This document shows positions 3,353 to 5,674 of a stretch of 5,674 bases of DNA, in pieces. Both the position numbers and the translations under genes were made by a program. The notes beneath the pieces were generated by a model. It was not told where the DNA came from and did not search any database. It worked only from the letters and a program-made list of their open reading frames with translations. Each line of letters opens with the position of its first letter. Within the stretch, counting starts at the first letter, position 1. Source of the DNA: a virus; IMG/VR virus record IMGVR_UViG_3300045988_037143, positions 1 through 5,674 of that record; one strand, written 5' to 3'.

Positions 3353-3390
3353 CAAAAAAAACAGGGCTTGTCAAGCCCTGTTTTAAAATT
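3353..3390 (-). terminator. Rho-independent terminator. Perfect palindrome ACAGGGCTTG-T-CAAGCCCTGT flanked by A8 and T-rich tracts. Bidirectional, but strongest for the minus strand (stem followed by T8).
   Basis: Plus strand: CAAAAAAAA-CAGGGCTTGTCAAGCCCTG-TTTTAAAATT. Minus strand: ...AGAGAAAAATAA-TTTTAAAA-CAGGGCTTGACAAGCCCTG-TTTTTTTTGAT. It sits immediately after the stop of the 58-aa ORF. Confidence 0.7.
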
Positions 3391-3565
3391 ATTTTTCTCT
3401 TCTGTTTAGTTCGTCTTTTGCTAGCGCGTGGATGTATTCACAACGGTAGCTTATGTCATTACATGGGCATTTTTCGCAATCTCTGTTGCAGTGCTTGAAT
3501 TTGTAGTCCATCCATCTCAAGGCCTCTGTGTCAAGGTCTTTGTACGTTGCTCTTAAAGTTTTCAT
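3389..3565 (-). CDS. 58-aa Cys-rich small protein (MKTLRATYKDLDTEALRWMDYKFKHCNRDCEKCPCNDISYRCEYIHALAKDELNRREK). Possible zinc-binding small protein.
   Basis: Hand-translated. ATG at 3565-3563, preceded by AGGGGAT with a 7-nt spacer, 20 nt downstream of a consensus promoter. The TAA stop abuts the terminator. The Cys/His cluster H25-C26-x3-C30-x2-C33-x-C35-x6-C42-x3-H46 resembles a zinc ribbon or knuckle. It is absent from the track because it is under 60 aa. Confidence 0.55.
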   Translation of the reverse strand: MKTLRATYKDLDTEALRWMDYKFKHCNRDCEKCPCNDISYRCEYIHALAKDELNRREK

Positions 3566-3591: not shown

Positions 3592-3620
3592 ATTATACCA
3601 CAACTTTGCTTATTTGTCAA
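3592..3620 (-). promoter_or_regulatory. Perfect consensus sigma70 promoter on the minus strand: TTGACA - 17 nt - (TGg)TATAAT with an upstream A/T-rich UP-like tract
   Basis: The reverse complement of 3591-3640 is AACTTTTTTTCAAAAACCTC-TTGACA-AATAAGCAAAGTTGTGG-TATAAT-C. Both hexamers match 6/6 and the spacer is 17 nt. The extended -10 TGn is present. The predicted TSS is near 3585, giving a 20-nt leader with an SD for the 58-aa ORF. Confidence 0.7.
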
Positions 3621-3743: not shown

Positions 3744-3948
3744 TTTTCCACACTTTCAACATTTTCAACAGGTTTTCCACGAAAAGTTGCACAAATGGTT
3801 TTGTGCATATTGCTACACTTTCAACAATTCAACAAGTTATCCACAAAAGTATCAACATCAAAATAATCCAGAAAATATCGTTCCAAGGATAAAAATTCAT
3901 GGTATTCAACATTTCAACACTCCCTACTATTACGACTACAACAAGTTA
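3744..3948. repeat. Iteron-like array. There are six perfect TTCAACA heptamers in three closely spaced direct-repeat pairs: 3755/3764, 3820/3828 and 3905/3913. Flanking repeats are CACTTTCAACA (twice), TTTTCCAC (twice) and CAACAAGTTA (twice).
   Basis: Counted directly in the AT-rich intergenic region. Pair spacing is 8-9 nt, and the pairs are 65 and 85 nt apart. There is no minus-strand ORF here. The plus-strand 129-aa ORF across it is low-complexity. Confidence 0.5.
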
Positions 3949-3968
3949 ATAATAAATAATAATAATAT
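3949..3968. repeat. (AAT)n / AT-only tract (aataataaataataataata) immediately 5' of the GC hairpin
   Basis: Read directly. A 100% A/T 20-mer. Confidence 0.6.
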
Positions 3969-4008
3969 CATGCGCGTGCGTGCGCGATTACGTGCGCGCG
4001 CGTGCATG
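3969..4008. repeat. 40-nt alternating pyrimidine-purine (CG/TG) element. It forms an 18-bp hairpin (catgcgcgtgcgtgcgcg - atta - cgtgcgcgcgcgtgcatg) with 14 Watson-Crick pairs and 4 G:T pairs. It has potential to form Z-DNA or an ssDNA hairpin.
   Basis: Each arm alternates Py-Pu perfectly for 18 and 18+ nt. Arm pairing was checked position by position. It is embedded in 100% AT flanks. Confidence 0.6.
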
Positions 4009-4027
4009 TCAATATGAAATAAAATAC

Positions 4028-4063
4028 TCAGCCAAGTAACATACTTGATAGTTACTTGGCTGA
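4028..4063 (-). terminator. Perfect 13-bp inverted repeat (TCAGCCAAGTAAC / GTTACTTGGCTGA) with a 10-nt loop. On the minus strand it is followed by TATTTTATTT. Probable terminator downstream of VP4. The plus-strand loop is ATACTTGATA.
   Basis: The reverse complement of 4028-4040 equals 4051-4063 exactly. A second small hairpin TGACAC-caaa-GTGTCA (4065-4080) overlaps the VP4 stop codon. Confidence 0.6.
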
Positions 4064-4077
4064 GTGACACCAAAGTG

Positions 4078-5097
4078 TCAAAATACACCTTTGGCTTTGC
4101 TCATCTTTTTGGACATGGATGCTTCCTTGTCCTTTAGCTGCTCTGCGTATGACTTATCTGTTTCCGCGTTTCTTTCGATTAGGGACGCAATGGCTTTTTC
4201 CTGCCGATACTGTTTGATTCTCCACGCTTTTTCAGGGTTCTCCGCTTCCAGTTTTCGCCAGTAGTATTCCGGTATGGCTGCTCTCTTGCCGTTGGTAAGC
4301 TGTATGTATCCCTGCTGCCAGAGTCTCTCTTGATGGTCTCGGAACCATTGGTCTCCGAGTCCCGGCTTTCGGCTCATTGTGCAAAATGGTGGTATTAAAC
4401 CCATTTTTTGGAAACGCTTTTTGTCGTTGCCGTACAGCTTTTTAGTTACGTACCCTGCAACATAATTATATGTTTGTGGTACTGCTTGTGCGATGTCAAC
4501 TGTACCCTGCCCCCAGATTTTGACTAGCTTATCACTTGTGTAGTGACCGTGTCTTGATAGCTTATGGATTGGCTTTAAGTCGTCTGGGTGCCATCCGTAC
4601 AGTATCATGTGATAGTGTGGTCTCGCTGTGTTGTCTCCATACTCTCCGGCTAAAAAGTATCTCAGAGGCTCTTTGATGGCCTTTCTTAGCCTTTTAATAA
4701 AGAGCTGGGTATCCTCCACGCTCAATGTTTGCGTCGTTCTCGGACGCTCTGAGGTGCCTTTCCAGATATTTATGCCGCCTTTGTAGATTTCGCCTGTTTC
4801 TGTGTCTTGTGTTGGTACATGGTCATCGTCGTACGTTAGCGTGATAAACCAGACACTTTCTTTGTCGTATCCGTATGCTTCTAGCTCCATCCGCGTCGCC
4901 CAGTCTTTGCGTTTGCGCAGTCTGCACCCGGTACATTGTCCACATGGTATCAACATTACATCTTTGCGGTACATTAAATTTTCGTACGTCATTTTGGTCT
5001 TGTGTATCTCGTTAAAAGAGGCGAGTGAGTACACTCGCCCACTCGCCTCTCTGTCGTGAGGTACATAAAACCGAATTAACGGTTTATTGCATCCCAT
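4078..5097 (-). CDS. VP4: Replication initiation protein VP4 (339 aa), an HUH rolling-circle endonuclease
   Basis: The N-terminus MGCNKPLIRFYVP has the M-x-C-x-x-P-L form common in gokushovirus VP4. The CGQCTGC zinc-binding cluster is present. Motif I is FITLTY (residues 84-89). Motif II is HYH (residues 161-163, nt 4609-4617, verified). Motif III is YVAGYVTKK (residues 212-220, nt 4438-4464, verified), near-identical to phiX174 A protein YVAKYVNKK with its two catalytic Tyr. The ATG directly abuts the VP2 stop (TAAATG). Confidence 0.93.
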   Translation of the reverse strand: MGCNKPLIRFYVPHDREASGRVYSLASFNEIHKTKMTYENLMYRKDVMLIPCGQCTGCRLRKRKDWATRMELEAYGYDKESVWFITLTYDDDHVPTQDTETGEIYKGGINIWKGTSERPRTTQTLSVEDTQLFIKRLRKAIKEPLRYFLAGEYGDNTARPHYHMILYGWHPDDLKPIHKLSRHGHYTSDKLVKIWGQGTVDIAQAVPQTYNYVAGYVTKKLYGNDKKRFQKMGLIPPFCTMSRKPGLGDQWFRDHQERLWQQGYIQLTNGKRAAIPEYYWRKLEAENPEKAWRIKQYRQEKAIASLIERNAETDKSYAEQLKDKEASMSKKMSKAKGVF

Positions 5098-5674
5098 TTA
5101 TTTAAGTTTCCCTTTCCAATATTCGATGTTTTTGCTCCCGATGAAGTCTCTTCCCGGTTTGTAGTTGAGCTCATCTTTGGTCGGTTGTCTCCCTGCACCG
5201 CCGACGCCACTGTTTAGGTTGCTGAGGTCGTTGAAGACGTCCTTGAATGCATTAAACGCTTTGTCTGCGCTTGTGTGTGACCAGCTTGTAGCGTCTCCAA
5301 CCGCTTGTGCTGCGTTGTACCAGTTACTTTTGCTTTTGCTCCATGTGTTGTTGTGGTTCTGGCTTACTCCGAGTGCGCTTGCGGTCGCTGCACTGCTGCT
5401 TGCGAGGCCCATACTTGCCCCGCTGATAGTTCCCTGACTGCCGCCCGGTGTGCTTGCTCCGCCCTGTTGGTATGCTAAGATAGGGTTAATGCCTGCTTTT
5501 CGCATATCTTCCACGGCTCGCTGATAAGCTGTATTGCTCATTTGTTCTTGCCAAGCTCTGTTTTTGGCTGCTTCTGCGCTGTTGTAGGACATCGCCGCGT
5601 TGTTGCTTATCTGGTTATATACACCCTGAGTGATTGCCGCCATGGTGTTATAGCCCATTTGTTCGAACATGCTT
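5098..5674 (-). CDS. VP2: VP2 minor capsid / pilot protein, C-terminal part. Continues upstream across the circular junction to the ATG at 346.
   Basis: The 190-aa track ORF (MFEQMGYNTMAAITQGVYNQ...GGASTPGGSQGTISGASMGLASSSAATASALG...) is open to the window edge and in frame with 78..346. It has a Gly/Ser/Ala-rich low-complexity core typical of VP2. Its TAA is adjacent to the VP4 ATG. Confidence 0.85.
   Translation of the reverse strand, partial: SMFEQMGYNTMAAITQGVYNQISNNAAMSYNSAEAAKNRAWQEQMSNTAYQRAVEDMRKAGINPILAYQQGGASTPGGSQGTISGASMGLASSSAATASALGVSQNHNNTWSKSKSNWYNAAQAVGDATSWSHTSADKAFNAFKDVFNDLSNLNSGVGGAGRQPTKDELNYKPGRDFIGSKNIEYWKGKLK
5598..5674. repeat. Second copy of the terminal redundancy (identical to 1-77)
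   Basis: See the 1-77 feature. Confidence 0.9.

Follow-up and report, generated by a model that had tools for sequence, protein, structure and literature searches.

An inverted hairpin module as a candidate rolling-circle origin of gokushoviruses

Gokushoviruses are among the most abundant single-stranded DNA (ssDNA) phages of guts and waters. We did not find a gokushovirus replication origin described in the searchable literature. The window analysed here, the whole 5,674-nt stretch of IMG/VR record IMGVR_UViG_3300045988_037143, is a complete circular gokushovirus-like genome: bases 1–77 are identical to 5598–5674, and this 77-nt terminal direct repeat implies a true circle of 5597 nt with an assembly overlap. 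Directly after its VP4 gene lies an inverted repeat whose loop carries the nucleotides that span the cleavage site of phiX174 protein A, on the strand antisense to the genes. Is this hairpin a transcription terminator, a coincidence, or a clue to the origin of rolling-circle replication? We find that the hairpin (4026–4065) and the adjoining flank GTGACACC (4064–4071) are a copy of a module shared among gokushoviruses, whose most likely function, in our moderately confident view, is that of a rolling-circle double-strand origin.

The hairpin after VP4 and its loop

The element and the gene that ends beside it are made up as follows; a slash within a motif marks the cut.

4026–4040, plus strand: 5′ arm of the hairpin, ACTCAGCCAAGTAAC, a perfect 15-bp complement of 4051–4065; the stem covaries among relatives
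4041–4050, plus strand: hairpin loop of 10 nt, ATACTTGATA; VP4 nick predicted between G4047 and A4048 by analogy with phiX174 CAACTTG/ATA
4051–4065, plus strand: 3′ arm of the hairpin, GTTACTTGGCTGAGT, pairing with 4026–4040
4064–4071, plus strand: conserved 3′ flank, GTGACACC, a candidate Rep-binding element that gives the module a polarity independent of the loop
4065–4080, plus strand: second small palindrome, TGACAC-caaa-GTGTCA, overlapping the VP4 stop codon (TGA, 4080–4078, minus strand) and forming a 5–6 bp hairpin on both strands
4025–4017, minus strand: T-run ATTTTATTT after the stem on the gene-sense strand, with a possible secondary use as VP4 terminator
4078–5097, minus strand: VP4, a two-tyrosine HUH rolling-circle initiator (PF23343, E 2e-17), with HYH at residues 161–163 and YVAGY at 212–216

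On the plus strand the order is hairpin, then GTGACACC, then the end of VP4, which runs towards the hairpin. A sequence-only reading of this locus had described a perfect inverted repeat of 13 bp within 4028–4080. The repeat is indeed perfect but has 15 bp, which makes it the longest inverted repeat of the window, and the earlier span also takes in the second palindrome. Folded as ssDNA, the hairpin reaches −19.2 kcal/mol on the plus strand and −19.0 kcal/mol on the minus strand (z −8.9 and −8.6; none of 200 shuffles was as good); folded as sense RNA, it reaches −31.9 kcal/mol (z −7.6).

The loop holds the nick-site core CTTG/ATA within the 8-mer ACTTGATA (4043–4050, plus strand). Its identity with the 8 nt that span the phiX174 nick, noted earlier, is confirmed by the phiX174 record, which reads ccccCAACTTGATATTAATAAC / CAACTTGATA / CAACTTGATATT with a rep_origin annotated at 4306. 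By itself the occurrence of the 8-mer is not significant: the window has a single copy, 0.17 are expected, and 30 of 200 shuffles contain at least one. The chance that it lands in the 10-nt loop of the hairpin, on either strand, is about 8e-5. The 8-mer is confined to this loop, and the other matches to the core CTTG(A/T)(T/C) in the window lack a comparable hairpin, their flanking stems having at most 5 bp except at a palindromic terminator (3358–3384).

The replicon encodes its own HUH-superfamily initiator with catalytic tyrosines. The active-site motifs of VP4, RPHYHMILY and YVAGYVTKK, correspond to LHFHAVHF and YVAKYVNKK of phiX174 protein A, the HUH segment being alignable; the likeness to protein A noticed earlier in YVAGYVTKK is thereby borne out. 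Judged by these motifs, VP4 is the presumed nickase of the hairpin module. The viral-strand origin of phiX174 (CAACTTG/ATATTAATAAC), from the same family Microviridae, thus offers an identical 8-nt core and an initiator with HUH and Y-x-x-x-Y motifs. It differs in lying inside gene A, without a hairpin, on the gene-sense viral strand, whereas the element of the window is intergenic, presents the core in the loop of a 15-bp hairpin next to GTGACACC, and is antisense. The 30-bp phiX174 origin proper, with its AT-rich spacer and binding sequence ATATTAATAACACTATAGACCAC, shows no similarity to the window beyond the 8 nt.

We then compared 80 IMG/VR loci encoding VP4 at 56–99% identity. Almost every locus having downstream DNA carries a hairpin at most about 25 nt from the VP4 stop codon, with ATCAAGTA on the sense strand, that is TACTTGAT on the antisense strand, in its loop; L032 and L062 failed the search for perfect-stem hairpins. 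A comparison of loops downstream of VP4, which the sequence-only reading had proposed as a check, accordingly finds the motif conserved from 99% down to 56% VP4 identity. The stems change in pairs: TCAGCC with GGCTGA, TCCGCC with GGCGGA, TCGGCC with GGCCGA, and GCCCAG with CTGGGC. In the group at 56–57% VP4 identity the stem is entirely different (AGCCCAGTACCT; TAGCCCAGTACCT) and the loop is exactly ATCAAGTA.

These relatives bear on what had seemed the simplest reading, an ordinary rho-independent terminator of the VP1-VP2-VP4 transcript with a chance match to the 8-mer. The window does offer a strong RNA stem straight after the VP4 stop codon, followed by UAUUUUAUUU as a U-rich tail, and the T-run is retained in relatives at 85–99% identity. 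It is absent from the 56–57% group, and termination therefore cannot be what keeps the element. Moreover, terminator loops are not constrained in sequence, yet this one is conserved to 56% VP4 identity and beyond, and most genomes have the module upstream of VP4, with GTGACACC after it. Our terminator scan did not flag the hairpin, whose 10-nt loop exceeds the 3–8 nt limit of that scan. As the sole function, termination is already contradicted, and we regard an ordinary terminator with a fortuitous 8-mer as very improbable. A secondary use is plausible in near relatives: the repeat and UAUUUUAUUU on the mRNA probably also end the VP4 transcript there and in the window.

An Rfam scan of the window gave no match above the gathering score, its sole hit (tpke11, 3954–4028, 25.2 bits against 43) being probably due to chance, and a tRNA scan of the window gave nothing relevant.

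A module shared across gokushoviruses

To the relatives we added a wider set: ten genomes drawn at even intervals from the 3672 tblastn hits in GenBank phages, and two alignment-seeded IMG/VR scans, which worked better than single-protein scans with the VP4 of Chp2 or phiMH2K (2–3 loci each). To count as the module, a hairpin needed a stem of 8 bp or more, perfect or nearly so, CTTG(A/T)(T/C) in its loop and, no more than about 16 nt 3′ of the stem, GACAC; the window has the 15-bp stem, the loop ATACTTGATA and GTGACACC at 4064–4071. Genomes with CTTGAT on the gene-sense strand are called type S, and those with the whole module, flank included, on the antisense strand type A.

Chp2, phiMH2K and SpV4 each present TACTTG(A/T)T, read on the gene-sense strand, in the loop of their longest perfect hairpin. 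Of 165 genomes, 155 contain a CTTG(A/T)(T/C) loop on a stem of 8 bp or more; this is the genome's longest hairpin in 41 of the 55 sense-type genomes and in 91 of the 100 of antisense type. The strict module, with its 3′ GACAC-type flank, is found in 202 of 231 genomes. Oriented by CTTG, the consensus reads stem, (T)(A/C)CTTGAT(G/A), stem, (G)GTGACACC.

Across 130 unique modules CTTG is invariant and CTTGAT nearly so. GACAC lies between −7 and +16 of the 3′ end of the stem in 115 of them (35 of 48 sense-type, 80 of 82 antisense-type); it is 5′ of the stem in none of the 48 sense-type and 2 of the 82 antisense-type modules. As GACAC is almost always 3′ of the stem, whole modules have been inverted and not the loops alone.

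A MAFFT alignment of 40 diverse modules shows CTTG and TGAC to be invariant, with compensatory changes in 11 of 12 in-register stem pairs. Covariation scores 0.449 in this alignment; shuffles give 0.174, none of 500 reaching the observed value, and slid controls do not exceed 0.163. The covariation, together with the invariant loop and flank, indicates that selection acts on the folding of the hairpin and on the sequence of both loop and flank. The sequence-only reading had left the choice between coincidence and a clue to the origin: the conserved loop, the compensatory stem and the recurrence across Gokushovirinae exclude the former and favour the latter.

Free variation of the arms also speaks to site-specific recombination. 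Some gokushoviruses integrate through phage-borne dif motifs (PMC7062461), so that the hairpin might be a dif-like site for XerC/XerD, as in CTX phage or the enterobacterial gokushovirus prophages. A dif site, however, consists of two conserved 11-bp recombinase-binding arms around a 6–8 bp spacer; in the module conservation is limited to the centre, and the arms vary freely and in a paired manner. Most gokushoviruses have no dif motifs (PMC7062461), yet the module is nearly universal. Such a site is a most unlikely explanation.

The flank is often a small palindrome, at 4065–4080 in the window and similarly in other genomes, and is likely the VP4 binding site, for which it is our candidate. 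A few variant modules keep the flank and have an altered loop core: CTCGGT in L096 (2771–2810; type A, skew +0.57 as defined below), GCTTGCC in Fen685_11 (L249, 3410–3444) and CTTGGT in L160 (3342–3378). They suggest that the loop motif co-evolves with VP4. By these simple criteria no module was recognisable in L245–L248, namely Tortoise microvirus 13, Rhizobium phage RHph_Y2 and two large-capsid faecal microviruses; L245 is nonetheless strongly A-rich at fourfold-degenerate sites (+0.56).

Origins of known replicons provide three further comparisons. The double-strand origins of the pC194/pUB110 plasmid family share the nick core, CTTGATA (PMC5031790), and are served by rolling-circle initiators of the same broad superfamily; being plasmid origins, they have their own flanking sequence, TTCTTTCTTAT, and no GTGACACC flank. 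The stem-loop origins of CRESS-DNA viruses (geminivirus, circovirus, nanovirus) and of pT181/pMV158-type plasmids likewise present the nick motif in a loop with a Rep-binding element beside the stem, but their nonanucleotide (TAATATTAC type) and Rep architecture are unrelated, and the analogy is functional only. The third comparison is with the Cap-Rep hairpins of reekeekee- and roodoodoo-microviruses, which are intergenic near Rep and have conserved loops and compensatory stems; no nick-site similarity, orientation or skew analysis was reported for them (Olo Ndela et al. 2022, PMC9865509).

Those hairpins were tentatively assigned to negative-strand initiation (PMC9865509), which raises the possibility that the gokushovirus module, too, is a complementary-strand origin: a hairpin of the packaged strand recognised by host primase, primosome or RNA polymerase, with a fortuitous likeness to CTTG/ATA. 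Microviruses need a start signal for the second strand, and the hairpin structure is clearly under selection. Against this, phiX174 and pC194-type replicons, whose initiators have the same active-site motifs as VP4, use a nick motif that the loop core matches. A priming signal read by the host should also differ from host to host, but phages of Chlamydia, Bdellovibrio and Spiroplasma retain the motif, as do lineages from guts and the environment. We consider a complementary-strand origin unlikely.

If the module is instead a rolling-circle double-strand origin, the inverted repeat would extrude from the supercoiled replicative form and present its loop single-stranded. VP4 would bind the flank and cut TACTTG/ATAG between 4047 and 4048 on the plus strand, as protein A cuts CAACTTG/ATA; it would remain on the 5′ end while the 3′ OH primes displacement synthesis. 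This placement of the nick is drawn by analogy from phiX174 and the pC194 family. A literature search found no gokushovirus hairpin linked to a CTTGATA nick site, though the original Chp2 and phiMH2K papers may contain an earlier mention.

Module orientation, base skew and the packaged strand

All recognisable genes of the window (VP1, VP2, VP3, VP4 and VP5) are on the minus strand, which upholds the earlier remark that the motif is antisense to them. In the window and its clade the nick motif of the module thus lies opposite to the gene-sense strand, which is the viral strand of Microviridae. Most genomes, including Chp2, phiMH2K and SpV4, are of type S, with the module usually just upstream of VP4 and, in SpV4, just downstream of Rep. 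Type A comprises the window clade, the 56–57% group, the L114 group, the L121/L149 group, L138, L092, L101, L096 and the environmental L214, L240 and L243.

Orientation goes with base composition, measured as AT skew at the fourfold-degenerate sites of long sense-strand open reading frames (ORFs). Type S genomes are mostly T-rich (T 40–75%), with a median skew of −0.62. Type A genomes have a median of +0.58 (T 7–15%, A 35–75%), and 99 of 100 are positive, the exception being a spurious hairpin call. Since the coding strand of type A is A-rich, the motif strand is the T-rich one. The preference of ssDNA phages for NNT codons has been attributed to C-to-T change on the single strand (PMC3278643), which the skew of type S fits. 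When VP1 proteins are clustered at 60% identity, the skew is positive in 10 of 10 type A clusters and 5 of 19 type S clusters (Fisher p 2e-4 on that table); one of the ten is a miscalled phiMH2K, which is of sense type, so that the genuine count is 9 of 9, the p value being that of the 10-versus-19 table.

L214 (+0.77), L243 (+0.53) and L240 (+0.73) are of type A, yet their nearest VP1 relatives are type S genomes of negative skew (66–70% identity for L214 and L243, 54% for L240). Within the half of the VP1 tree that holds the gut genomes, well-supported clades of the two types alternate, four of type A and three of type S, and their skews are opposite. One 10.9-kb record of about twice the normal length, L061 (IMGVR_UViG_3300045988_007630), combines a type A module with a near-neutral skew of +0.11; its longest VP1-like ORF clusters with type S genomes, and it may be a chimera or concatemer of two microviruses.

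Next to the hairpin lies a second structured tract:

3969–4009, plus strand: alternating purine/pyrimidine GC tract, Z-DNA-prone, adjoining the hairpin; it forms an 18-bp hairpin with four G·T pairs on the plus strand only, which are C·A mismatches on the minus strand

Tracts of this kind occur in 84 type A genomes and only 2 of type S. In the 84, they hold 339 T against 133 A on the motif strand, T exceeding A in 59 genomes and A exceeding T in none. Mismatches in type A stems, read on the motif strand, are G·T 14 times and A·C never. In fourfold substitution spectra of the window clade and the 57% group, G>A exceeds C>T per base, the direction predicted, although the sites are saturated and the 40–70 usable ones give counts far too small; in a sense-type control clade C>T is the higher of the two.

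Microviruses displace and package the strand that is nicked. With the module inverted, the strand nicked, displaced and packaged would be the plus strand of the window, antisense to every gene. By this analogy the window clade probably displaces and packages its antisense strand. The polarity of the module being fixed, a complementary-strand origin predicts the same packaged strand, so the inversion has to be accounted for under that explanation as well; only a function in duplex DNA, blind to orientation, avoids the prediction.

Such a function is conceivable if the module binds a protein or serves regulation, for example in docking of the procapsid or autoregulation of VP4, and works in either orientation while the nick lies elsewhere and the gene-sense strand is packaged. 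The often palindromic flank GTGACACC would suit a binding site, and exceptions to the skew rule mean that skew alone is no proof of polarity. Furthermore, AACTTGTTG occurs twice on the sense strand, in a conserved intergenic array, and 77 of 99 antisense-type genomes have it. However, it belongs to a TGTTGAA array and its flanking stem of 2–5 bp is not conserved. A covarying stem of free sequence favours a folded hairpin over a duplex operator, and the link between orientation and skew would be left unexplained. We find a duplex site quite unlikely. The sense-strand intergenic AACTTGTTG was also considered as the true origin and rejected: it is a member of the TGTTGA(A/T) array, has no conserved hairpin, lies on the antisense strand in the L121 group and is missing from seven further type A lineages.

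Several observations weigh against an inverted rolling-circle origin. PhiX174 itself uses no hairpin at its origin. Deep nodes of the VP1 tree have bootstrap values below 55%, and the gut type A clades may represent anything from one to four inversions, so that few independent events stand behind the association. The coding strand is A-rich in about 10% of type S genomes, among them phiMH2K (+0.30), L087 (+0.45), L168 (+0.39), L173 (+0.42), L237 (+0.59) and L239 (+0.35). A-rich type S genomes (phiMH2K, which is L082, with L087, L168, L173, L237, L239 and L179) have only 2–10% G at fourfold sites; AT skew therefore has a second determinant and cannot alone prove polarity. Type S stems lack the asymmetry between G·T and A·C, and the intergenic region of the window as a whole is not T-rich on the plus strand. 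Finally, the hairpin classifier is a motif regular expression, and it made false calls in L146, L189, L210 and at a second phiMH2K hairpin.

Taken with these points, we give an even chance to the broader proposal that the hairpin with CTTGAT and GTGACACC is the origin of Gokushovirinae, and that a large gut clade and several smaller lineages independently inverted it, giving rise to negative-sense Microviridae with a bias for NNA in place of NNT as footprint. To our knowledge, Microviridae are described as uniformly positive-sense, and our literature search found no description of a negative-sense microvirus.

The module is a candidate origin for a whole subfamily, and the strand polarity it predicts for a major gut clade is unexpected. 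A 50-nt module with a predicted cut site makes the question of the gokushovirus origin testable, and it can serve as a landmark when metagenomic genomes, of which there are thousands, are annotated and oriented. If inversion has the meaning it would have in phiX174, some members of the family package the non-coding strand. Strand-aware virome libraries would then be read differently, models of mutation bias and codon usage and the rebooting of synthetic genomes would change, and inversion of a small cassette could flip the polarity of an ssDNA virus.

Other features of the window

The remaining recognisable genes are these:

5670–5098, minus strand: VP2-like ORF, listed with 190 aa and running on across the junction from about 345
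2872–2483, minus strand: VP5
2532–2029, minus strand: VP3
2032–392, minus strand: VP1

Two further small ORFs are on the same strand. Close relatives are faecal gokushoviruses of human, pig and monkey, with DNA identities reaching 90%.

The intergenic array contains, at 3755–3919 on the minus strand, seven copies of TGTTGA(A/T) on the gene-sense strand, arranged with three doublets, the copies of a doublet 8–9 nt apart and successive doublets separated by about 55 nt; by chance the whole window would hold about 0.4 copies per strand. The stretch around it (3744–3960) matches 44 GenBank phage records at 70–95%. The array is conserved in three type A groups; in the L121/L149 group it is inverted and flanks the opposite side of the hairpin, and type S genomes lack it. 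From its sequence it looks like a set of iterons. A consensus DnaA box, TTATCCACA (3837–3845, plus strand), lies inside the array and is found in about 35% of type A genomes, and a 23-nt run of A and T only (3946–3968) is nearby. Together, DnaA box, A/T run and iteron-like repeats resemble the anatomy of theta-plasmid origins or of a complementary-strand origin.

A 58-aa cysteine-rich ORF (3389–3565, minus strand), which has no family match, is preceded by a perfect TTGACA-17-TGnTATAAT promoter (3592–3620, minus strand). The ORF is followed at 3358–3384 by a bidirectional, terminator-like palindromic hairpin of 13 bp.

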